DNA of 47,767 nucleotides. Origin: Escherichia coli. GTDB taxonomy: Bacteria; Pseudomonadota; Gammaproteobacteria; Enterobacterales; Enterobacteriaceae. The notes beneath the pieces are model-generated. The model saw only the letters and a list, made by a program, of their open reading frames with translations, did not search any database and had not been told where the DNA came from. Location of the stretch: NCBI GenBank assembly GCA_024546615.1, contig GCA_024546615.1_5040.1, one strand, 5' to 3'. Shown piece after piece: positions 1 to 47,767 of the stretch (position 1 is the stretch's first letter; each line of letters starts with the position of its first letter). A program made the translations under genes and the position numbers.

Positions 1-35
1 GACATACCCCGAACGAGTTTTAACGGGGTATGTGG
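1..35. repeat. Right end of repeat copy B (continues from 47502-47767 across the window junction); contains hairpin ATACCCCG-N12-CGGGGTAT (4-31)
   Basis: Bases 1-35 match 15476-15510 with one mismatch; 8-bp inverted repeat read directly. Confidence 0.8.
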
Positions 36-5389: not shown

Positions 5390-5418
5390 ACTCTATACCA
5401 CACTGACGGAGTCGTCAA
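5390..5418 (-). promoter_or_regulatory. Sigma70-like promoter TTGACG-17-TAGAGT overlapping palindrome TGACGGAGTCGTCA
   Basis: -35 is rc of 5413-5418, -10 is rc of 5390-5395, spacer 17; drives minus-strand acidic gene operon. Confidence 0.55.
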
Positions 5419-11123: not shown

Positions 11124-11146
11124 TACCTACCCTCAGCGACATCCCA

Positions 11147-11172
11147 AGCCCTCTTCGGAGGGCTTTTCTTTT
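11147..11172 (+). terminator. Rho-independent terminator after capsid gene
   Basis: Hairpin AGCCCTC-TTCG-GAGGGCT followed by TTTCTTTT. Confidence 0.7.
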
Positions 11173-11219
11173 GTCTCCTCTTGGGTTATAGTTACCACCG
11201 TCTTAAGAGGAGGAATTCC

Positions 11220-12800
11220 ATGTTCGTAGAAAGAGCAAAAAAAATACATAAAGGGAAATACGACTATTCCAAAGTGGAATATGTAAATAATAAAACACCC
11301 GTGACGATAGTTTGTCCGGTGCACGGTGATTTCGTTCAAATACCGCAGGGACACCTGAACTGCGAAATAGCGTGTCCAAAATGTAGAATCGACGATGTTT
11401 ATGACCGAATGATACAGCGGGCACGGGAGATTCATGGTGACAGATACTCATACGTCCGGGAATCATTCGTTTCCGTAGTCAAGAAAATGTCTATAATTTG
11501 TCCTGTACACGGGGTGTATCGGATGACACTGAACAACCATGTTCACAATGGTGCGGAATGTAAACCATGCGCACTGGCGAAACGTGGAGAATCACAACGG
11601 AAGACACTTGACAGTTTTGTGGAAGACGCGAAAAAAGTTCATGGTGACAGATACGATTATTCCAAAGTTATTTACGAGGGCAACAAAAAGAAAATAACCA
11701 TCACTTGTGCAAAACATGGTGACTTCAAACAGGAACCATATTCACATCTTTCGGGAAGAGGTTGTCCAAAATGCGGTCTCGAATCCAGAGCAAGCAAAAG
11801 TATGAGTACTCTTGAAAGATTCATTCACAAAAGCAGAGCTATACACGGTGACAAGTATGATTATTCTAAAGCGGTGTATAAAGGTAGTGACCAAAAACTA
11901 ACCATAATTTGTCCGGTGCACGGTGAATTTTCCCAATACGCAAATAACCACTCTACTCTTGGTCATCAATGCCCGACGTGTTCAAAAGCGGGTGTGTCCC
12001 GAGGTGAATTTGAAGTCTTCAACTTCGTCCGTTCCATCTGTCCCGATGCGGTACAATCCGACCGTACAACCATTGGACCGCTGGAACTTGATGTTGTAGT
12101 GCCGTCGCGCAATCTGGCAATTGAATTTAACGGTCTGTACTGGCACGATGAGCGCACGAAAGACAAGAAGTATCACATCGCCAAGCGTCACCGCGTGGAA
12201 GCCGCAGGATACCGTCTGATAAGTATCCGTGAGGATGTCTGGAATGAGCGCCGTGAGCAGGTAGAAAATATCATTCGCAACGCGCTCGGCGTGACATCCG
12301 ACAAAGTGTTTGCCCGTAAATGTGACATCGTGGAAGTTTCGACGTCTGAAGCGAAGGTATTCATGGAGAAACACCACGTGCAGGGTTTCCGGGGTGCGAC
12401 CGTTCATTATGGTTTGCAACATGATGACACCTTAGTTGCTGTGATCAGTCTGACAAACTGGCAGAAAAAGAACGAATGGGAACTGGTACGATATGCAACC
12501 GCGTGTAATGTCCCGGGTGGACTGTCCCGCTTGTGGAAACATGCTACCACGGTTAACAGCATCGTCCGCGCCTATTCATACGTTGACCGGGATTTGTTCA
12601 GCGGTTCCAGTTACGCTAATGCCGGTTTCATACTTTCAGCCACAACAGTAGGATTCAGGATCGTAAATGGTTGCACAACCGAATCGCGTGAGAAGTGGAA
12701 CCGCGCACCAGACGGAATGACACAGACGCAATGGTACGAATCAGAAGGTGTATCACGCATCTACGATTCTGGACAGGACAAGCTGTTATGGGTAAAATGA
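11220..12800 (+). CDS. Homing-endonuclease-like protein: four tandem zinc-ribbon modules, Vsr/DUF559-like nuclease core, unknown C-domain
   Basis: Four repeats of ...HGDxYDYSKV.Y...K.TI.CP.HG.F.Q.P..HL.G.GCPKCG; then ELDVVVP...LAIEFNGLYWHDE resembling Vsr FVDGCFWH motif; RBS AGGAGG; inserted after capsid terminator. Confidence 0.6.
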   Translation: MFVERAKKIHKGKYDYSKVEYVNNKTPVTIVCPVHGDFVQIPQGHLNCEIACPKCRIDDVYDRMIQRAREIHGDRYSYVRESFVSVVKKMSIICPVHGVYRMTLNNHVHNGAECKPCALAKRGESQRKTLDSFVEDAKKVHGDRYDYSKVIYEGNKKKITITCAKHGDFKQEPYSHLSGRGCPKCGLESRASKSMSTLERFIHKSRAIHGDKYDYSKAVYKGSDQKLTIICPVHGEFSQYANNHSTLGHQCPTCSKAGVSRGEFEVFNFVRSICPDAVQSDRTTIGPLELDVVVPSRNLAIEFNGLYWHDERTKDKKYHIAKRHRVEAAGYRLISIREDVWNERREQVENIIRNALGVTSDKVFARKCDIVEVSTSEAKVFMEKHHVQGFRGATVHYGLQHDDTLVAVISLTNWQKKNEWELVRYATACNVPGGLSRLWKHATTVNSIVRAYSYVDRDLFSGSSYANAGFILSATTVGFRIVNGCTTESREKWNRAPDGMTQTQWYESEGVSRIYDSGQDKLLWVK

Positions 12801-14756: not shown

Positions 14757-15155
14757 TTATGCTTTACTGCCCACATATTTAATCACCATATATCCTGGTC
14801 TGGCGGAAAGTGAGACCTTGTGTCCGTATATCCACGCGGTTTTGTATACGTATGTTAACTGTGCGGTGCGCAATTTAATGTCCGAATATGTTGCTTTAGT
14901 TCTCCAGTTCCATGTGAACTCATCGCCCGGTTTTGCTCTTTCAAGGGCGTCAAGGAGGATGATACGCTCATACGACCTTACCCCACGTGATACGCGTCTC
15001 CTGGTTTTGGGCTTCCCTCGTGCCAGACTTCGTTTATCTGGTTTTCCACTTTTTGTAATTCGTATCAGTCTCTGTGATGGCTGTGCGACATCTTGAGGGA
15101 CACTCTCTTCTGGAACAGAATTTATTTTTTTTAAAATATAAGCTGCAAATGACAT
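14757..15155 (-). CDS. Basic hypothetical protein (132 aa)
   Basis: Lys/Arg-rich; first gene downstream of promoter at 15187-15215; RBS AGAGAGG. Confidence 0.5.
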   Translation of the reverse strand: MSFAAYILKKINSVPEESVPQDVAQPSQRLIRITKSGKPDKRSLARGKPKTRRRVSRGVRSYERIILLDALERAKPGDEFTWNWRTKATYSDIKLRTAQLTYVYKTAWIYGHKVSLSARPGYMVIKYVGSKA

Positions 15156-15186: not shown

Positions 15187-15215
15187 AGTATATCAGTGGC
15201 TGACGCATTCGTCAA
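15187..15215 (-). promoter_or_regulatory. Sigma70-like promoter TTGACG-17-TATACT overlapping palindrome CTGACGCATTCGTCAA (15200-15215)
   Basis: Spacing read directly; at left boundary of repeat copy A. Confidence 0.55.
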
Positions 15216-15510
15216 TACCTCATTTACCCCGAAATACCCGAGGCATCGGGGTGGCGAATTTACTTTCACAATCATAGGTTTACGCGCATAACCGAAAACC
15301 ACGTACATTCTTCCCCTCTTCCCTCTTATAAACCCTATAATATATACATTATGTATTATACTACATTTATACTATATATTATATACTCTCTATTACTACT
15401 AATTACTATTTTATAAGGGTATAAGGGTAATAAGTAATAAGTAACAGAAAACTAAAGAGTTTTTTATACCCCGATGACATACCCCGAACGAGTTTCAACG
15501 GGGTATGTGG
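15211..15510. repeat. Repeat copy A (~300 bp, about 93% identical to 47502-47767 plus 1-35): hairpins, AT-rich TATA-rich core, TAAGGGTA/ATAAGTA short direct repeats
   Basis: Direct by-eye alignment of the two copies; hairpin CCCCGA-N13-TCGGGG near 15228-15252 and ATACCCCG-N12-CGGGGTAT at 15479-15506. Confidence 0.85.
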
Positions 15511-15559
15511 ATACCGGTGCAACGTTGTGTGATAATGTCTTGACAAATGAGGGCACACC

Positions 15560-16063
15560 ATGTCAGTCAATATTACAGAATTGCAAAAAGCTAAAGGTAT
15601 CATCCGCGACAGGCTCGGGCGATTTGTTAAAGCCAGTAATCGCGTCGTTACTGTTGGGATACATGAGGACGCTGGTGAACATCCTGACTCTGGTATGACG
15701 AATGCGCAGCTTGGTGCATTGCTGAATTACGGTAACCCGAGTAATAAATTGTATGGTAATCCCGCACCTATCCCTCCTCGTCCCTGGCTCGTCCCCGGAG
15801 TGGAGAGTGGTAAACAGGATATCGTGGACACCATCGCTCACGGTGTAGCTAATGATTTGCCGCTTGAACAGGTACTGGAGCAAGTAGGTGCATTTGCGGC
15901 TGGTGCGGTACAACAATACATGACTGATTTACATCAACCGCCAAACAGCGCGTACACTATTGCTCAAAAGGGTTCCAGCAATCCGCTTATTGACACGGGC
16001 GCTTTACGCGCGAGCGTGACATACAAGGTCAGTAACGAAAAACCTGATGAGGGTATCTTATGA
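15560..16063 (+). CDS. Tail completion / HK97 gp10-like virion morphogenesis protein
   Basis: C-terminal PLIDTGALRASVTYKV motif typical of gp10-like family; RBS GAGGG; first gene after repeat copy A. Confidence 0.5.
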   Translation: MSVNITELQKAKGIIRDRLGRFVKASNRVVTVGIHEDAGEHPDSGMTNAQLGALLNYGNPSNKLYGNPAPIPPRPWLVPGVESGKQDIVDTIAHGVANDLPLEQVLEQVGAFAAGAVQQYMTDLHQPPNSAYTIAQKGSSNPLIDTGALRASVTYKVSNEKPDEGIL

Positions 16064-32346: not shown

Positions 32347-32375
32347 ACTCTAAACTACTTTGACGCACTCGTCAA
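32347..32375 (-). promoter_or_regulatory. Sigma70-like promoter TTGACG-17-TAGAGT overlapping palindrome TTGACGCACTCGTCAA (32360-32375), embedded in 3' end of upstream gene
   Basis: Spacing read directly. Confidence 0.5.
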
Positions 32376-32948
32376 CGGTAAAACTAACTTTTCTGCTTCC
32401 TGAATGTACCAGTCGTAATTCAGTGCTCCCCAGTCGAAGTCTTTAGCGTCGGCACACTCTGTCACCTTCCATCCTGCACACATACTTGTTTCGCGCACTG
32501 CATCGTGCTTACTGCGACTCTTCGTGTGGATACGCTCGTCCCACGGTGTACCAATGCTGTCGAGGTCGCCCGGTTGACCTGTAATCTCACGCATTACCGC
32601 ATTGTACACATCGTCCTTGACACCATTCTTACGCTTCCATGTACCTGGTGTACCAGTGGGCGGTAACAGCTTGACCAGTGACCCACCGTTACGCGAGATA
32701 AATACACGTGTGGTATTCTGCATCTCCTGTTCAGCGCCCCACTCAGGCCAACGCATCACCAGACGTGCCGAACGAGGTACTTTGGCGCGCAGCATGAAGT
32801 CGAACGGGTCACGGTGCTGCGTGATGAACGTGCGGATGTCAGTGTCAAACAGAAGTGCGGCTTCAGCGGCGCGGGCAACAATCATCGCCGATGGGTCTTG
32901 ATGCCACTGGTATTTGTACTCGTAACACCCTTTTCTTTTAATTTTCAC
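32355..32948 (-). CDS. Hypothetical protein (197 aa) sharing GTPWDERIH motif with 37785-38834
   Basis: Motif DSIGTPWDERIHTKS versus DSTGTPWDERIHSTS in the 349-aa protein. Confidence 0.45.
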   Translation of the reverse strand: MKIKRKGCYEYKYQWHQDPSAMIVARAAEAALLFDTDIRTFITQHRDPFDFMLRAKVPRSARLVMRWPEWGAEQEMQNTTRVFISRNGGSLVKLLPPTGTPGTWKRKNGVKDDVYNAVMREITGQPGDLDSIGTPWDERIHTKSRSKHDAVRETSMCAGWKVTECADAKDFDWGALNYDWYIQEAEKLVLPLTSASK

Positions 32949-33828
32949 GGGTTGCCTCCAGCATTTCTAAAATTCGATTGTCCCATTTCAACCATTCGGT
33001 ACAACCATCAAAACCAGATAGTCCAGCATTAACGAAAGAAGAATGAGTTAGTTTTTCGATAAATTCCATTTTTCCACCTATGCCAGATAAAACTCGGAGT
33101 AACTGAAAATCAAATGGCGTACTTCTTTTCAATTTCCTCAAGCGATATTTATAATTATTGCTGATACCGACCTTCATATATTCCCCACCTTTGGAAGCAA
33201 GTACATAAAGGGAAGCCATCTGGTTACGTTTAAATCCACTCTTAGAACAGTCTTGACATCCTTGTCCACCGGATACGTGATCTATAGCCAATTTTTCAAA
33301 ACTACCGTGAACAGGGCAAATTATCTTTATTTTATGATGATTACCTTTATATTGAGATTCCGAATAATCATACTTATCCCCATGTACTGCGCGGGCTTTC
33401 TCAATCCATTCTTCGGTGTTATAAAGAGGAAGTCGTCCTTTTCCAGGACCTCCTGCGCATTTCGCGCACCCGTGGCCTTTTAGATGATTGCCGGCTAATT
33501 GGAGGAATTCCCCATGCTCTCGACAAATGATTATTATTTCTGAATGTCGTTTTTTATACTTAACCTTCGAATAATCATACTTATCTCCATGTACTGCACG
33601 GGCTTTCTCAATCCATTCTTCAGTGCTGGATTTTTTTGTCCCACCACAAACTGGGCAGCCGGAACCAGAACAGTGAGACGTGGGTTCTTGTCGGAAATCT
33701 CCATGCAATCGACAAACAATGGTCACTTTATGTTTTGAAGTACGATACTCGACCTTCGAATAATCATACTTATCTCCGTGTACCGCACGGGCTTTCTCAA
33801 TCCATTCTTCTGTGTTCAATCTTCTCAT
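32938..33828 (-). CDS. Homing-endonuclease-like protein: three tandem zinc-ribbon modules plus C-terminal T5orf172 (GIY-YIG-like) domain
   Basis: Three repeats of EEWIEKARAVHGDKYDYS...; C-terminal YVLASKGGEYMKVGISNNYKYRLRKL...GCTEWLKW; contains three ~55-bp DNA direct repeats. Confidence 0.6.
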   Translation of the reverse strand: MRRLNTEEWIEKARAVHGDKYDYSKVEYRTSKHKVTIVCRLHGDFRQEPTSHCSGSGCPVCGGTKKSSTEEWIEKARAVHGDKYDYSKVKYKKRHSEIIIICREHGEFLQLAGNHLKGHGCAKCAGGPGKGRLPLYNTEEWIEKARAVHGDKYDYSESQYKGNHHKIKIICPVHGSFEKLAIDHVSGGQGCQDCSKSGFKRNQMASLYVLASKGGEYMKVGISNNYKYRLRKLKRSTPFDFQLLRVLSGIGGKMEFIEKLTHSSFVNAGLSGFDGCTEWLKWDNRILEMLEATREN

Positions 33829-35348
33829 TCTATTACCATTATGTAATTATTCACATCTCGCTGATAGAGAGATTTCACAATATCAGTCTCCAGATTCAAC
33901 ATTGTTGTTTTTTCCCAAGACTTACATATGGATTCCACCAAAATTTCATATTTGTTTTCATAAAAAATGACGATTCCGTCAGTATTAGTTTGCGGTACGA
34001 TTAATCCGGGTACACGAGTTACAAGTTGGTCTACCAACATTGCCAAACAGAGTTGACCTGTAATAGTAATACTCAGGAGACACTTATGGTCACAAAATGG
34101 GCTAAATTTACTCCCCATGTTCCCAAATGTACCATTAAGAGCAAGTTTCAATGCCGCATCAACTGTTTTATCTCCCGCTCGTTTTGCATCACGACGACGA
34201 ATGAACAGTTGTTCATATACGTCGCAAAAAGTTTCACTAAGGTGTTCCGGATAGTACCTATTCTTTATACTAATGGAAGGGTACATACTTGTACAGTCTT
34301 TGTTTTGTAAATTGTGTGTTTGGGTAGAATGCACAACGTAGTTCGGAATACTACTGTGAATACCTCCCAATCCGAACGAATATTCGACACCATCAACTGT
34401 GACGGTCATATCACTAAACACACCTTTTGTGGTCAGTAATTCGTCCTGTTGTTTCTTCGTGAGTACAACCCCACGAATGCGTTCCAGAATTTGATTGAAC
34501 TCCGGTCGTTCGAATTTGATATAAGGGGGTATGCAATCTGCAAGTGCAATACGTTCACGAATGGTTACTCCGGAGCAATCTACCCCGGCCTTTTCCAGCT
34601 CGTGAACGAATATATCTTTGCCGATTTTAGTGTCGGCGTGGTTCATGAAGTTACGTCCGTATTGCTTTGTCAGTTCCTCACGGAAATGGATTTTGTCGAG
34701 TGAACGTACAAAGAATTTCAGCGTCTCTCGCACGTCGTGTTTGTTATATACGATGAGGATATCTTTCTGCGCATCGTTCAGCACCATTCCGACCGGGAAT
34801 GGCAGGTCTTTTACGTTGGGGGACTGCATGCCCACTTCCAACGCCTTCAGACTGGTGCGCCGGGCTTTATTATCAAAGTGATGAATTTTGTACAGGTCAA
34901 TCTGCTCGAAAATCTGGTCGCGGTCCCATACAATTTCGGGCCACTGACCTTCGGGTTTAATTTGTGATTGTGCTTTTGTGTAAATCTGTTCCAGTGTACA
35001 GCCTGGTGTATTGACCACGTAGTGCAACACCGGATAGTCGAATGCCAGGTTATTAAATCCAATCCCACGGGCCTTACTACATCCCAGGTTGAACACAAAT
35101 TCGATTAATTGCGGTTGCTCGTTTTTGCGGTCACTAATCTCGAAGATTAACTCCATACCCGTCGCAGCGTGAATAAATGAGGCAGTGAAGATATTCGGAT
35201 ACGTCTCGATGTCCCATCCCCAGTCCCGCGGGTCCAGTGGTGCAACGCTGGAGAACGCCGAATCAGCCCCACAGTGAGGGCAATTGTGGAGGTCAGCGGG
35301 ATAATTTTTACCGCAAGTTGCATCCTCGCATTTTGATAAATAGTGCAT
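33825..35348 (-). CDS. Compact family-B DNA polymerase with 3'-5' exonuclease motifs and N-terminal zinc finger
   Basis: Exo I WDIETY, Exo II FNNLAFDYPVL, Exo III YNKHDVRE; motif A DCTSMYPSI, motif B KLALNGTFG, motif C TNTDG; N-terminal C-x4-C-x11-C-x2-C. Confidence 0.7.
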   Translation of the reverse strand: MHYLSKCEDATCGKNYPADLHNCPHCGADSAFSSVAPLDPRDWGWDIETYPNIFTASFIHAATGMELIFEISDRKNEQPQLIEFVFNLGCSKARGIGFNNLAFDYPVLHYVVNTPGCTLEQIYTKAQSQIKPEGQWPEIVWDRDQIFEQIDLYKIHHFDNKARRTSLKALEVGMQSPNVKDLPFPVGMVLNDAQKDILIVYNKHDVRETLKFFVRSLDKIHFREELTKQYGRNFMNHADTKIGKDIFVHELEKAGVDCSGVTIRERIALADCIPPYIKFERPEFNQILERIRGVVLTKKQQDELLTTKGVFSDMTVTVDGVEYSFGLGGIHSSIPNYVVHSTQTHNLQNKDCTSMYPSISIKNRYYPEHLSETFCDVYEQLFIRRRDAKRAGDKTVDAALKLALNGTFGNMGSKFSPFCDHKCLLSITITGQLCLAMLVDQLVTRVPGLIVPQTNTDGIVIFYENKYEILVESICKSWEKTTMLNLETDIVKSLYQRDVNNYIMVIE

Positions 35349-41631: not shown

Positions 41632-41660
41632 TTGACCACTCCGTCAACCTGTGCCATACT
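41632..41660 (+). promoter_or_regulatory. Sigma70-like promoter TTGACC-17-CATACT overlapping palindrome TTGACCACTCCGTCAA (41632-41647)
   Basis: Spacing read directly. Confidence 0.5.
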
Positions 41661-41689
41661 GCAACAAATCACCTAATGGAACCGAATTT

Positions 41690-41968
41690 ATGAGCAAAGA
41701 ATACATTTTAGAAGTAGCTTACACAATGGCGCAGCGCGACGGCTTTGGCACTCTTACCCGCGACGGCGTTGCGGCTGAGGCTGGCGTGGCGATGGGTTCA
41801 GTTAACCATCACTGGGTCAGGATGTCCGCACTTCGTGAAGCAGTGATGCAACGGGCAGTGGAAGAAGAAAACCTCGAATTGATTGGACAGGGAATGGCGC
41901 TGGGTGATAGCGTTGCCAAATCCGCACCACTGGAGCTACGCACCCGCGCACTGACCACCCTGCTTTAA
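41690..41968 (+). CDS. Small HTH protein, TetR-like N-terminal fold (candidate transcriptional regulator)
   Basis: TLTRDGVAAEAGVAMGSVNHHW resembles TetR-family HTH; track ORF trimmed to MSKEY start. Confidence 0.45.
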   Translation: MSKEYILEVAYTMAQRDGFGTLTRDGVAAEAGVAMGSVNHHWVRMSALREAVMQRAVEEENLELIGQGMALGDSVAKSAPLELRTRALTTLL

Positions 41969-41990: not shown

Positions 41991-44348
41991 ATGACACATA
42001 TGAATCCCCCTGTGCAGGGGGCTGATTCCCTGCACTTTATCGTCTGCAAAACAGTACCTTCACAGAAGAAGCCGGGACGTACGGAGAAGATGCCATGTAA
42101 CGCTGCCGGTGATGTGGTCAGTCTGCACGTTGCGGACCGGATGTCTCACGCTCAGGCAGTTGCGGCGGCTTCCGCACTGGGTGAGTCATATCGTCCCGCG
42201 GTTATTCTTACGGGTGACGGACGTTTCTGCGTGGATATCGACGGCGCACTGCAGGACGACAACACCTGGTCGCCGCTTGCGCTGGAGTTATGCACCACTT
42301 TTGCCGGTTGTTACGTGGAAGTGAGCAACAGCGGTAAAGGCTTGCACATTTTTGGTTACAGCCCGTCCATCCCCGAACATGCCTGTAAAAATATTCCACT
42401 ACACATTGAACTGTACACCTCTGACCGTTTTATCTGCCTGGGGAGCAACGCACGAGGTGACATGATGTTCAACGCATCTGCGCCGCTCAACGCCACGGTT
42501 GCACGTTATTTCCCGCAGACCGAACAAGTTGCGGCGGTGGAGTGGACAACGACTCACGCTGAAGGTTCGTGTCCGATTGAGGATGATGTGAAACTCATCG
42601 AAAAAGCCTGTTCCAGTAAAGGCGGTGTCGCGGCTGTTTTCGGTGGTAAAGCAACATTCAAAGACCTGTGGACGCGCAACGTTGAGGTACTGAGTGATGC
42701 GTATCCGGATGAGGACCGTGAATATGACGGGTCAAGCGCTGATGCAGCATTAGCCCAGCATCTGGCGTTCTGGTGCGGCGGTAACTGTCAACGTATTGAG
42801 CGTCTGATGCGTCTCAGTGCCCTTGTCAGACCAAAATGGGACAGCCATAAGAGTTACCTTCAACGCACCATCCTGGGCGCTTGCGCACGTCAGACGACTT
42901 ATTACAGCGTCGGTGCACCAATTGAACTGGTAACTCCCGCGCAGGTTGTCGAGACGGGTGCGCCGGTTATCCGCAGTGGGTATCAGTTCATTGGAGGCTC
43001 ACAGCTTGTTGACCACTTCAAAGGCTGCGTGTATGTGGCAGACAGTCACCGCATTCTCACACCTAACGGTCAGATGCTGAAGTCCGAGCAGTTTAACGCG
43101 ATGTACGGTGGTTATGTGTTTGCACTGGATGACGGTAACGAAAAGACCACCAAAAAGGCTTTTGAAGCGTTCACCGAGAATCAGTGCATCATGTTCCCGA
43201 AGGTTGATCGCTCGACATTTCGTCCGGATTTGCCACAGGGTGCAATCATTGAGGAGGATGGTCTGCGTCACGTCAATACGTACATACCGGTGACGGTGGC
43301 GAGCGCCCCCGGCGATGTGACACCTTTCCTCACTCATCTGGCCAAACTGTTACCCGTCGAGCGCGACCGTGACATTCTGTTGTCCTACATGGCAGCGTGT
43401 GTACAGTACAAGGGTGTAAAATTTAAATGGGCACCATTGTTACAGGGTGTTGAAGGTAACGGTAAAACACTGTTCACACTGTGCGTAATGGAAGCGGTCG
43501 GGTCACGTTACAGCCACATGCCGCCAGCGCAGGAAATTGGTGAGAAGTTCAACGCCTGGTTGTTCGATAAAATATTTATCGGCGTGGAGGATATTTATGT
43601 CCCGGAGCAAAAACTCGAACTGATTGAGACGCTCAAGCCGATGATTACCGGCGAGTACCTCGCCAAGCGTGCGATGCAACAGGACCAGGTAATGCACCGC
43701 CTGTGTGCTAACTTCATGTTTAACAGTAACCACAAGAACGCCGTGCGCAAGACCGCTAATGACCGCCGGTTCGCCATTTTCTACACCGCGCAGCAGGAGC
43801 ATATGGACATTGTGCGCGATGGTATGGGTGGCGACTACTTCCCCAACCTGTATGACTGGCTCAAACGTGGCGGTGGATTTGCAGCCGTAACGCATTATCT
43901 GGAGAACTACGCCATTCCCACACAACTTAACCCGGCGACACATTGTCAGCGTGCCCCGGAAACAAGTAGTACCCACGAGGCTGTGACAGCATCACTCGGC
44001 AGTGTCGAGCAGGAAATTATGGAAGCAATCGACGAGGGTCGCACGGGCTTCGCGGGGGGCTGGGTGAGTAGTAAAGCACTGGATAATCTGTTACGCCAGA
44101 TGCGCGCTGACCGCGCTGTGCCGGTGGGTAAACGTCGCGACATGATGCGCCAACTGGGTTACGACTGGCACCCGGCGCTTAAAGACGGGCGTGTGAATAA
44201 CGTAATAATGATTGATGGTGGTAAACCGCGTCTCTACATCAAGATTGGACATATTCATGCTAACCTCACAAATGCGGCGGACGTGGCGCGCCATTACGCA
44301 GCAGCACAGGGTGATACAAGTGCGTTAGCCTTTGCAGAAACTAAATAA
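41991..44348 (+). CDS. Primase-helicase (P4 alpha/D5-like, SF3 helicase C-domain)
   Basis: 785 aa; Walker A GVEGNGKT, Walker B FIGVEDIYV; N-terminal primase-like domain; RBS AGAGAGACAGAG. Confidence 0.7.
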   Translation: MTHMNPPVQGADSLHFIVCKTVPSQKKPGRTEKMPCNAAGDVVSLHVADRMSHAQAVAAASALGESYRPAVILTGDGRFCVDIDGALQDDNTWSPLALELCTTFAGCYVEVSNSGKGLHIFGYSPSIPEHACKNIPLHIELYTSDRFICLGSNARGDMMFNASAPLNATVARYFPQTEQVAAVEWTTTHAEGSCPIEDDVKLIEKACSSKGGVAAVFGGKATFKDLWTRNVEVLSDAYPDEDREYDGSSADAALAQHLAFWCGGNCQRIERLMRLSALVRPKWDSHKSYLQRTILGACARQTTYYSVGAPIELVTPAQVVETGAPVIRSGYQFIGGSQLVDHFKGCVYVADSHRILTPNGQMLKSEQFNAMYGGYVFALDDGNEKTTKKAFEAFTENQCIMFPKVDRSTFRPDLPQGAIIEEDGLRHVNTYIPVTVASAPGDVTPFLTHLAKLLPVERDRDILLSYMAACVQYKGVKFKWAPLLQGVEGNGKTLFTLCVMEAVGSRYSHMPPAQEIGEKFNAWLFDKIFIGVEDIYVPEQKLELIETLKPMITGEYLAKRAMQQDQVMHRLCANFMFNSNHKNAVRKTANDRRFAIFYTAQQEHMDIVRDGMGGDYFPNLYDWLKRGGGFAAVTHYLENYAIPTQLNPATHCQRAPETSSTHEAVTASLGSVEQEIMEAIDEGRTGFAGGWVSSKALDNLLRQMRADRAVPVGKRRDMMRQLGYDWHPALKDGRVNNVIMIDGGKPRLYIKIGHIHANLTNAADVARHYAAAQGDTSALAFAETK

Positions 44349-44370
44349 GCCCTTCGGGGCTTTTTTTTTT
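44347..44370 (+). terminator. Intrinsic terminator GCCC-TTCG-GGGC plus T10
   Basis: Read directly. Confidence 0.75.
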
Positions 44371-44380
44371 GCAATTAGTA

Positions 44381-44409
44381 TTGACGGACTCGTCAATAGG
44401 GCGTATATT
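44381..44409 (+). promoter_or_regulatory. Near-consensus sigma70 promoter TTGACG-17-TATATT with palindrome TTGACGGACTCGTCAA (44381-44396)
   Basis: Read directly; preceded by conserved GCAATTAGT. Confidence 0.65.
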
Positions 44410-44458
44410 TAATCACATGAAAGGCGGAACTGTTCCACCCCACGGGGAGAATAAGAAA

Positions 44459-44590: not shown

Positions 44591-44616
44591 CAGCCCCTGA
44601 ATGGGGCTTTTTTTTT
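44591..44616 (+). terminator. Intrinsic terminator AGCCCC-TGAAT-GGGGCT plus T9
   Basis: Read directly. Confidence 0.75.
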
Positions 44617-44626
44617 GCAATTAGTG

Positions 44627-44655
44627 TTGACGAGTCCGTCAAGGTAGGTTATCTT
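44627..44655 (+). promoter_or_regulatory. Sigma70-like promoter TTGACG-17-TATCTT with palindrome TTGACGAGTCCGTCAA (44627-44642)
   Basis: Read directly; same GCAATTAGT upstream context as 44381. Confidence 0.6.
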
Positions 44656-44689
44656 TAACTCATCGGAACAACAACAGAGAGGAATACAA

Positions 44690-46840: not shown

Positions 46841-46871
46841 AAAAGGCCCGCATTTAGCGGGCTTTGTTTTT
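46841..46871. terminator. Bidirectional terminator GCCCGC-ATTTA-GCGGGC flanked by A- and T-tracts
   Basis: Between convergent genes ending at 46680 (+) and 46873 (-). Confidence 0.65.
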
Positions 46872-46872
46872 A

Positions 46873-47451
46873 TTATCTCCCACAGTTGCGACATTTGCCA
46901 TTCGCCACATAACGTTCTGCAATAATATTACAGTGCTTGCAAGGCTCATACGGAATATACCAGCGTTTGCCATCAGCGATAGCTTGCTGGCGCGGCGATT
47001 TAATTTTAATGATGCCGACGTGGATTCCTGCTTCACTCAGTAACAGGGCGTTTTTCATCGTCTCTAACTGTTCATTCAAAACGGAAATATTGTGCTCAAT
47101 CATTGCGATGTTCTCACGCAGTGCATCGGCTTCACCAGTAGTGCTAACAACGGCTGATTTTGGTTTTTTCCATTCCCCTGTCATGCGCTGCTCGGTTAAG
47201 CAGAAGACACATTTGCCAGCAGTGTTACGGACACCCGGATGTCCACATTCACTGTTCGGTTTCTTCTGCACCCTCCACGAACGACCATCGTTAAGACCGT
47301 CGAGAACTTTCTGATAGAGTTCATTACGTGCAGGAAGACCCATGTTTTTCGCTTTCACAAAATTATAGTGGTCATCAAGTGTACAAATACTGCACAATTC
47401 TGTTTCTTTAAATTTTGTATCGCCGTGACAATTATCTCTGAGATGAATCAT
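46873..47451 (-). CDS. Cys-pair-rich (zinc-finger-like) hypothetical protein (192 aa)
   Basis: Three C-x2-C pairs; RBS AGGAGAGAAAC; first gene downstream of promoter at repeat B boundary. Confidence 0.5.
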   Translation of the reverse strand: MIHLRDNCHGDTKFKETELCSICTLDDHYNFVKAKNMGLPARNELYQKVLDGLNDGRSWRVQKKPNSECGHPGVRNTAGKCVFCLTEQRMTGEWKKPKSAVVSTTGEADALRENIAMIEHNISVLNEQLETMKNALLLSEAGIHVGIIKIKSPRQQAIADGKRWYIPYEPCKHCNIIAERYVANGKCRNCGR

Positions 47452-47476: not shown

Positions 47477-47506
47477 ACTATAAAACAATAGAGAATTACG
47501 GGTCAA
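47477..47506 (-). promoter_or_regulatory. Sigma70-like promoter TTGACC-18-TATAGT at left boundary of repeat copy B (half palindrome only)
   Basis: Read directly. Confidence 0.45.
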
Positions 47507-47767
47507 TACCTCATTTTACCCCGAAATACCCGAGGCATCGGGGTAGCGAATTTACTTTCACAATCAGCAGCTTACGCGCATAACCGAAAACCCCGTACAT
47601 TCCTCCCCTCTTCCCTCTTATAAACCCTATAATATATACATTATGTATTATACTACATTTATACTATATATTATATACTCTCTATTACTACTAATTACTA
47701 TTTATTAGGGGTATAGGGGTAATAAGTAGTATAGTACTGAAAGGTAAAGAGTTTTTTATACCCCGAT
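47502..47767. repeat. Repeat copy B (continues into 1-35), about 93% identical to 15211-15510
   Basis: Direct alignment by eye; same hairpins and AT-rich core as copy A. Confidence 0.85.

Follow-up and report, generated by a model that had tools for sequence, protein, structure and literature searches.

A duplicated array of TACCCC half-sites ahead of the two late operons of a Jedunavirus genome: a candidate early/late switch region

The early-to-late switch of phage phi29 is contained in a region of 200–300 bp (A2c/A2b, A3) that lies between leftward early and rightward late promoters and is governed by the proteins p4 and p6. Its late promoter has no -35 element, it carries several inverted-repeat sites for one small phage protein, and bendable AT-rich DNA together with a histone-like partner allows the formation of a loop in which early transcription is repressed and late transcription is activated. 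A second solution is found in the activator-dependent late promoters of Mu (C/Mor, with a site near -43.5) and of P2, P4 and 186 (Ogr/Delta/B, with a TGT-N12-ACA dyad near -55), where a good -10 is combined with a -35 that is poor or missing, a dyad whose arms stand 12 nt apart sits immediately upstream of the -35 position, and one activator serves several late operons. Here we describe a non-coding element of about 300 nt, present as two copies (A and B) in a 47,767-base stretch of DNA deposited as Escherichia coli (assembly GCA_024546615.1, contig GCA_024546615.1_5040.1; hereafter the window), which represents the entire genome, in circularly permuted form, of a Jedunavirus, one of the 'dwarf' myoviruses of Klebsiella and Escherichia. 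The element resembles both the activator-dependent late promoters and the phi29 switch, but it fails those tests of membership that need homologous regulators. Our favoured interpretation, to which we give a probability of about 0.5, is that each copy would act as a multi-site, activator-dependent early/late switch region of one late operon. Under this interpretation, and at similarly even odds, copy B would serve the terS, terL, portal and head genes, and copy A the neck, tail and baseplate genes.

Each copy of the element occupies, as the phi29 region does, 200–300 bp between a leftward early and a rightward late promoter, with a predicted late promoter that lacks a -35 and with several inverted-repeat sites that one small phage protein might bind. 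Our candidate for this protein is p192, the product of a gene beside copy B. The looping mechanism established for phi29 is one that we only infer for the element, and the two systems differ in several respects: homology is lacking in sequence and in protein (p192 and p4 are unrelated), the bending partner would be the integration host factor (IHF) of the host, the element occurs twice per genome, its proximal site lies at about -42 rather than -82, and the host of phi29 is Gram-positive. With the Mu and P2 promoters the element shares the good -10, the poor or missing -35, a dyad with the same spacing in the same place and the prospect of one activator for several late operons; the P2-family activator is, moreover, a small zinc-finger protein, as p192 would be. 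Unlike those systems, a Pfam/PHROGs scan of 43 open reading frames (ORFs) of the window gave no C/Mor or Ogr/Delta homologue, its sole regulator-family match being TetR_N. Further differences are the half-site itself (TACCCC), the variable spacer of the dyad, and an extra 250 nt, holding 5–7 more sites, an IHF-like site and a G-free core, that have no counterpart in the Mu and P2 promoters.

Copy A (15211–15511, 301 nt) stands upstream of the tail operon, and copy B (47502–47767 continuing into 1–36, 302 nt) spans the window junction and stands upstream of terS. A preliminary description of the window had put the two at about 93% identity, and global alignment bears this out, with 283 of 303 columns identical (93.4%) and a longest exact run of 100 nt (15312–15411). 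Outside the element the sequences are unrelated, the adjoining 60 nt on the left aligning at 57% and the adjoining 48 nt on the right at 50%. The element is the sole long repeat of the window, and by far its longest. The gene downstream of copy B is terS (83–535, + strand; Terminase_2, PF03592), first in a packaging/head operon of terS, terL, portal and head genes that extends on the + strand from 83 to ~14.4 kb. Copy A is followed by the Neck1/tail-completion gene (15560–16063, + strand; ZCEC13 annotation, tblastn), which opens the tail operon of neck, tail and baseplate genes, also on the + strand, from 15.56 to ~29.8 kb. The positions given earlier for both copies are in agreement with these assignments.

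As the window starts inside copy B, and as the record of the related Escherichia phage ZCEC13 has a 77-bp end duplication in copy B, it could be suspected that the repeat is an assembly duplication or a collapsed terminal redundancy. We give this explanation next to no credence, as it is refuted by the 20 differing columns of the 303 and by the unrelated flanks, and both copies are found in 71 of the 71 independent Jedunavirus records of the phage collection as well as in two more distant lineages. The argument against an artefact that had been drawn from the divergence of the copies is therefore strengthened by comparison with related phages, in which both the copies and their positions are kept. 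The end repeat of the ZCEC13 RefSeq record (L001, NC_071140.1), in which ~77 bases of copy B appear at both record ends (47948–48021 and 4–77), is probably a leftover of circularisation; the same record annotates small 'hypothetical protein' genes inside the non-coding element. Metagenome assemblies of these phages, too, break because of the repeat, as a genuine repeat would make them do, into pieces of ~33 kb and 15 kb: many among the IMG/VR contigs L003, L005, L007, L008, L013, L019–L021, L231 and L232 begin or end 100–190 nt upstream of Neck1, within the element, and many are ~33–35 kb long, the length of the larger arc between the two copies.

The anatomy of the element can be read directly from the sequences. 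Its basic unit is a half-site, TACCCC or GGGGTA, of which each copy holds about 8–10 in three clusters, with two direct and one inverted on the left, two in tandem in the centre, and two direct and one inverted on the right. The octamer TACCCCGA occurs seven times in the genome, against 0.9 expected, and always within the two elements. The left cluster consists in copy A (15225–15253) of TACCCC at 15225 (+), TACCCG at 15235 (+) and CACCCC at 15248–15253 (-), and in copy B (47517–47545) of TACCCC at 47517 (+), TACCCG at 47527 (+) and TACCCC at 47540–47545 (-). In the centre, where GGGTA represents TACCC on the - strand, copy A (15414–15443, +) has TAAGGGTA twice (TAAGGGTATAAGGGTA at 15414–15429) and then ATAAGTA twice, while copy B (47706–47728, +) has TAGGGGTA twice (TAGGGGTATAGGGGTA) and then one ATAAGTA, so that the short direct repeats reported earlier for both copies hold for copy A and need amending for copy B. 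The right cluster has TACCCC at 15467 (+), 15480 (+) and 15500–15505 (-) in copy A (15467–15508), and at 47759–47764 and 5–10 (+) and 25–30 (-) in copy B (47759–47767 and 1–36), position 36 being the end of the repeat.

Two of these clusters had been described as hairpins, and the inverted repeats in question are indeed present in both copies: CCCCGA-N13-TCGGGG at 15227–15251 and 47519–47543, and the terminal ATACCCCG-N12-CGGGGTAT at 15479–15506 and 4–31. Folded as DNA, the terminal hairpin reaches -10.2 kcal/mol (z = -3.9), and the left hairpin is weaker (z = -1.2 in copy A and -2.2 in copy B). Among lineages, the spacer of the inverted repeat in the right cluster varies between 12, 13, 16 and 21 nt while the position of its promoter-proximal arm stays fixed, and for this reason the 'hairpins' appear better read as clusters of a repeated TACCCC half-site than as structures in their own right; a site anchored to the promoter accounts for the pattern better than would a symmetric operator or a plain hairpin.

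The right end of the element is where the late promoter likely lies. Just outside the repeat we find an extended -10 with no usable -35 at each locus, namely TGTGATAAT (TGT + GATAAT; 15528–15536, +), the putative tail-operon promoter, whose hexamer starts 29 nt before the ATG, and TGTTAAAAT (TGT + TAAAAT; 53–61, +), the putative packaging/head-operon promoter. The best -35 candidates, TGGATA and GTGGCA, have 3–4 matches out of six and none is conserved between lineages; in comparison, the extended -10 TGTGATAAT is conserved in all A copies, and TGGTAAAAT/TGGTAGAAT in all B copies. The distance from the proximal half-site to the -10 is 27 nt at copy A and at copy B. When the 140 nt ahead of each downstream gene were scanned without bias with a -10 weight matrix, in 15 lineage-copies, the best -10 fell 26–29 nt after a GGG(T/A) half-site in 12 of the 15 and 37 nt after one in two. 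Between half-site and -10, locus A shows no sequence relationship to locus B, nor one clade to another, and TGn precedes the hexamer in most cases. The fixed feature is consequently where the promoter-proximal half-site stands, at about -39 to -45, which is the geometry of a class II-type activator site. A genome scan for a half-site followed after 27 nt by a -10 returned no instance elsewhere; as the arrangement is unique, and as the 13 early promoters considered below are mostly leftward, the two elements provide the only evident promoters from which the rightward virion genes could be transcribed. A sigma54 promoter (-24/-12, GG-N10-GC) downstream of the element was also considered and was rejected by eye, both TGGATACCGGTGCA and TGGCAATGACGGGAC having the wrong GG-to-GC spacing.

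The earlier proposal of a duplicated late-promoter/activator-response region is thus favoured in its essence by the comparative evidence, that is, by the conserved extended -10 and its fixed spacing. Where it requires revision is in the placement of the promoter, which had been sought among the TATAAT-like hexamers of the core: a promoter scan of both strands of the TA-rich core found none that has both hexamers, and none was predicted to transcribe into the element. The suggestion of a leftward sigma70-like promoter at each left edge fared better, as the scan finds both, with 10 of 12 matches each. At either copy the left edge coincides with the -35 of this divergent, early-type promoter. At copy A (15187–15215, - strand) it comprises TTGACG (15210–15215), a 17-nt spacer with a TG, and TATACT (15187–15192), and is predicted to drive the gene at 14757–15155 and the dUTPase gene; at copy B (47477–47506, - strand) it reads TTGACC-18-TATAGT and would drive p192.

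The copy A left-edge promoter belongs to the class TTGACG-N4-CGTCA, together with 12 other sites of the genome, and its palindrome TGACGCATTCGTCA (15201–15214), an operator-like motif of the early promoters, overlaps both the -35 and the first bases of the repeat. In total the palindrome T(T)GACG-N4-CGTCA(A), a -35 hexamer joined to its mirror image, has 13 copies in the window, starting at 5404, 7397, 8476, 15201, 18851, 32361, 33968, 36457, 38883, 38940, 40777, 44382 and 44628. Most are followed 7–8 nt later by a TATAnT-type -10, and they mostly drive leftward clusters, so that they look like phage early promoters with a built-in operator, for which the TetR_N-like protein encoded at 41651–41968 is a candidate binder. 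Related palindromes occupy the same place in distant relatives (TTGACTCATGAGTCAA in L187 and TTGACGGACGTGTCAA in Vibrio phage CP-T1). A terminator-promoter cassette, comprising the intrinsic terminator GGGGCTTTTTTTTT and, directly behind it, an early promoter, is duplicated 246 nt apart at 44357–44412 and 44603–44658, which cuts the early region into very short transcription units.

Beyond the window, both the pairing and the order of the parts are widely kept. Phage D (L186/L187) has both copies, 97% identical over 165 nt and 16 kb apart, as does a clade V contig (L267/L268), upstream of terS and Neck1; in all the two-copy genomes, whether Jedunavirus, phage D or clade V, the copies are directly upstream of these two genes and in the same orientation. 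Single copies of the same architecture precede terS or Neck1 in L036, L272, L226, L227, L229, L237 and L240. The conserved order runs from the left cluster through an IHF consensus, a polypyrimidine tract, the TA-rich core and the tandem RGGGGTAWA to the right cluster, and it persists in lineages beyond Jedunavirus where Neck1 is ~40% identical and the element is barely alignable. The central tandem, RGGGGTAWA twice, is conserved in every lineage, these distant ones included, and the left-cluster arrangement of two direct and one inverted half-sites is likewise kept in all lineages, with a varying loop sequence. In all Jedunavirus copies, conservation of the right 115 nt is ~95%; this holds also for Pectobacterium phage PEAT2, whose terS locus shows this segment as an island of 83–95% identity between flanks of 40–70%. 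Some genomes carry another sequence in place of the left half of copy B, but two direct and one inverted half-sites are retained in it.

The element is not present in all relatives. Vibrio phage CP-T1 has the same gene order, but its terS- and Neck1-upstream regions share no repeat and the element is absent, and in Vibrio phage 1.278.O the intergenic gap before the neck/tail operon is just 91 nt. The primase–terS region of CP-T1 (L263, 17341–17807) holds three copies in tandem of a 23-bp repeat, GGGGTGTTATAAATTATATGA, and an AT-rich segment enclosed by two long inverted repeats, one nested in the other, with nothing similar upstream of Neck1.

Copies within a genome are 90–98% alike, those of distant genomes are barely alignable, and alleles of the segment 15430–15455 occur at locus A or at locus B in different genomes. 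With the copies of one genome far more alike than distant orthologues, and alleles shared across loci, the two copies evolve in concert, most simply by gene conversion. These same observations, with the mosaic around the elements of PEAT2 and the breaking of metagenome assemblies at the element, could also be accommodated by a conserved linker with no regulatory role, be it a recombination hot spot, a module boundary or a selfish repeat kept by gene conversion, as a side effect of which co-infecting phages would exchange the 15.5-kb head module. We regard such a linker as very improbable, as the clusters, the tandem motif, the IHF-like site and the distance to the -10 are kept in order despite a near-unalignable sequence. 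An architecture that outlasts sequence divergence implies selection on function and not mere homogenisation; furthermore, direct repeats expose a circular replicon to costly deletions and would be lost if useless.

Between the left and central clusters, three features are found. An IHF-like site is found in copy A (AATCATAGGTTTA, 15270–15282, +), with one mismatch to the consensus WATCARNNNNTTR, and in copy B (AATCAGCAGCTTA, 47562–47574, +), with a perfect match; among elements of related lineages, nine of 18 have a perfect IHF consensus against 1.2 expected, at two recurrent positions. A conserved box, TTACGCGCATAACCGAAAACC(A/C)CGTACATT (15280–15308, +), is near-invariant in the Jedunavirus copies that have the left half, and GAAAACCCCGTACAT is present in L036 too. 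The core that follows begins with a polypyrimidine tract and becomes TA-rich; it measures 103 nt in copy A (15309–15411, +; A32 C23 G1 T47) and is equally G-poor in copy B (47601–47703, +; 1 G in 103 nt), with 77% A+T overall and ~85% in the TA-rich part in a genome of ~49% G+C, and it has at least two sequence variants among phage subgroups with its composition kept. Across 15309–15466 and 47601–47758 there is a pronounced strand asymmetry, the single G in 103 nt being followed by only 1–2 C in the next 55 nt; on its + strand the core is threefold enriched in TAC, and the purine-rich part in GTA, with the same polarity in distant lineages. No model that we considered accounts for this asymmetry. 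At the right boundary of copy A, TGTGGATAC (15506–15514) matches the DnaA-box complement TGTGGATAA at 8 of 9 positions and overlaps the -35 position of the putative tail-operon promoter; it is kept in nearly all Jedunavirus A copies (GTGGATAC), and the B copies carry TGTGGCAAT instead.

The preliminary description had allowed for an origin or a packaging role, and both stand as rivals to the switch reading. Were the element an iteron-type replication origin, present twice or as an origin plus enhancer in the manner of P4 ori/crr, TACCCC would be the iteron for a phage initiator such as the PrimPol-D5-type helicase or p192, the core would be the unwinding element with IHF assisting, and the hairpins on either side might be signals for priming, in the way that RSF1010 ssiA/ssiB are for RepB'. 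Clusters of short repeats on both sides of a TpA-rich, ~85% A+T core of 100 nt with IHF-like sites, 8–10 half-sites per element and a motif, TACCCCGA, confined to the elements are what one would look for in such an origin, and a core whose composition rather than sequence is conserved between subgroups is expected of an unwinding element. The phage also encodes a suitable enzyme, a PrimPol-D5-type helicase with an NrS-1-type helix-bundle domain (41991–44348), a domain that in known systems recognises specific template sites (PMC8718748); comparison of the NrS-1 PrimPol recognition sequences with the element was uninformative. It is plausible, too, that the polypurine tract of the - strand favours a stable R-loop, and the three 23-bp repeats and AT-rich segment between primase and terS in CP-T1 could be taken as a parallel. 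Nevertheless, an origin has no need of a conserved 27±1 nt to a -10, nor of a constant orientation towards late operons; both copies stand at late-operon starts, outside and away from the replication module (replication genes, 30–47 kb), it is hard to see why a phage would need a pair of origins separated by 15.5 kb, and the core has no predicted promoter reading into it. Cumulative GC skew has its one clear minimum elsewhere, at 38–39 kb in the divergent early region, though this signal is weak and confounded by transcription. The P4 elements themselves, two separate cis elements with a clustered motif in both orientations and AT-rich DNA in a replicon encoding a fused primase-helicase, as here, share octamer iterons bound by the primase-helicase alpha protein. 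They differ from our pair in that ori and crr are unlike in structure and adjoin replication genes, whereas the elements here are near-identical and precede late operons; alpha is also another type of primase, and the fixed promoter spacing has no P4 parallel. We consider an origin function unlikely.

The pac regions of P1 and SPP1 are recognised by TerS through short repeated boxes and bent DNA; in P1 pac, two clusters of sites flank a central region with an IHF site. The two site clusters of the element around a central region with an IHF-like site recall this arrangement, and those of copy B, as in the pac sites of P1 and SPP1, lie directly upstream of the terminase; terS itself is of the Terminase_2, SPP1 G1P-like family. 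The element might on these grounds be a pac site for headful packaging, at which TerS binds the repeats, IHF bends the TA-rich DNA and TerL cuts nearby, on the model of P1 pac or SPP1 pacL/pacC/pacR, with the second copy as a second series start. This would be in line with the circular permutation and terminal redundancy of the phage group (PMC3391216). Set against it, copy A is 15.5 kb away from copy B, before the tail operon, and is equally well conserved; the element lacks Dam-site hexamers; the B copies of some genomes have no canonical left half; and the fixed spacing to the -10 is left unexplained. Terminus analysis of Jedunavirus IME346 found no fixed termini (PMC9007800). A packaging signal is in our judgement distinctly improbable.

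The position of one copy at the head of each long operon is shared with the putL and putR sites of HK022, which are likewise two similar copies, and raises the possibility that the element acts as RNA, whether as a structured leader, a put-like antitermination RNA or a small regulatory RNA. Antitermination would carry late transcription past two kinds of feature: both rightward virion operons hold embedded short leftward (antisense) clusters of small genes, and the packaging/head operon carries, right after the major capsid gene, a strong intrinsic terminator (AAGCCCTCTTCGGAGGGCTT plus T-run, 11146–11165, +), beyond which the genes of this first late operon need read-through or another promoter. 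Moreover, both strands of the element fold better than shuffled sequence (z about -3), and some stem variants are G-U-compatible on the + strand only, although this is a weak indication. HK022 put, however, acts as RNA downstream of its promoter, and the best-supported promoters here are downstream of the element and point away from it; nor is there structural or covariation support. A predicted long-range pairing, in which the left inverted arm joins the first half-site of the right cluster, was rejected because its variants in other phages do not covary, and a pairing of the polypyrimidine tract with the GGGTA repeats is, by eye, not conserved in phage D or L036. The one compensatory variant of the terminal stem, CCCTG..CAGGG in L034, would be equally expected of a protein target made of two half-sites, and the loop sequence is conserved though the spacer length varies. 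Searching Rfam 15 at the gathering threshold gave no match in the whole window, and a permissive E-value search of the element gave a single, chance-level miRNA match (E = 0.7). A bidirectional intrinsic terminator (46843–46865), which separates the end of the p192 gene from the rightward early operon, is also predicted to insulate copy B against upstream read-through. With this terminator, no promoter into the element and no Rfam match, a role at the level of DNA fits better, and we find an RNA function improbable.

For the switch reading, the candidate for the protein that binds the half-sites is p192, a product of 192 aa (46873–47451, - strand; phrog_20468) whose gene diverges from the left edge of copy B. 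It has a CxH..CxxC zinc-finger motif, a C-terminal CxxC-x12-CxxC zinc finger, a third, N-terminal CxxC and a central coiled coil; the C-terminal finger does not vary, and nor does the CCCC core of the half-site. In every lineage examined, at least five and down to 34% identity, p192 lies divergent between the element and the end of the early operon, and it is absent from CP-T1, which also lacks the element; it is this synteny and co-occurrence that point to a link between the two. Of 5.8 billion protein clusters searched, 28 matched p192, all from this phage group where the context is visible. Its AlphaFold model has a pLDDT of 83.5, and searches returned no Pfam family, no informative sequence match in the PDB and no Foldseek match against the PDB.

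Taken together, these features enabled us to propose a model for late gene activation. In this model, host RNA polymerase would transcribe the early genes, p192 included, from consensus promoters, and an early-made phage protein, of which p192 is the best candidate, would come to occupy the TACCCC half-sites. The promoter-proximal protomer would then recruit or stabilise RNA polymerase at the extended -10, in a class II-like manner comparable to that of Mu C/Mor and P2 Ogr, while the distal clusters would be joined to it through IHF bending and the flexible TA-rich spacer, resulting in a higher-order looped complex. It is plausible that this complex also covers the upstream side of the divergent early promoter, so that early transcription would give way to late as in the p4 switch of phi29 and p192 would regulate its own gene, and that gene conversion keeps the two copies alike. 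We would place less trust in a bolder version, which we hold to be rather doubtful, in which the element and p192 form an unrecognised regulatory system of phiPLPE-like/Jedunavirus phages. In that version, an enhancer-like complex of ~10 TACCCC sites and IHF would fire both late operons and perhaps also act as an origin or replication-coupling site linking late transcription to replication, with the G-free core as an unwinding or R-loop segment and with gene conversion keeping the copies identical.

Several points weigh against the activator-dependent switch. The promoter calls are consensus matches only, and an extended -10 can act without an activator, so that nothing obliges the half-sites to bind an activator. 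If the right 60 nt act as a promoter, this leaves the conservation and duplication of the ~250 nt upstream, and the strand asymmetry of the core, unexplained, and repeats flanking a TA-rich region with an IHF site are an equally textbook picture of an iteron origin or of a P1/SPP1-type pac. The half-site-to-promoter spacing is 37–38 nt, not 27, in the clade V B copies and in L272, and the IHF-like site of copy A has a mismatch. Finally, p192 has no recognisable DNA-binding family or fold match, and its link to the element is one of synteny only.

The closest records to the window are the Escherichia phages ZCEC13 and CWW26 (91% identity around the element), followed by Klebsiella phages KpV52 and JD001. 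Two further features of the genome were observed during this work. The DNA polymerase gene (32355–35348, - strand) is split into parts of 507 aa and 197 aa, which together equal the size of the single 704-aa gene of ZCEC13, by an insert with a 296-aa ORF (32938–33828) whose product combines zinc-finger repeats with a T5orf172/MUG113 nuclease domain. A 539-aa ORF (11181–12800, +; DUF723, REase-like) that closely follows the terminator of the capsid gene includes the segment 11814–11924, of which the three 79-nt repeats of the 296-aa ORF are inverted copies. The two look like related homing-endonuclease-like genes.

A search of the literature on Jedunavirus and phiPLPE-like phages found no description of the repeat, of promoters, of a transcriptome or of a transcription programme; one paper reports 'no repeats', from tandem-repeat software only (PMC10276810). 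If the switch interpretation is correct, the two elements would be the only switches for all virion genes of these phages. Among the Klebsiella phages isolated for therapy, Jedunaviruses are some of the most frequent, and they are already being engineered by several groups. The elements would then provide a natural handle with which to control or re-wire late expression, and would have to be kept intact when tail modules are swapped. In p192 they offer a concrete candidate, open to test, for a novel late-activator family whose recognition motif is simple and, as a pair, they represent a clean natural example of the concerted evolution of regulatory DNA in a 48-kb virus.

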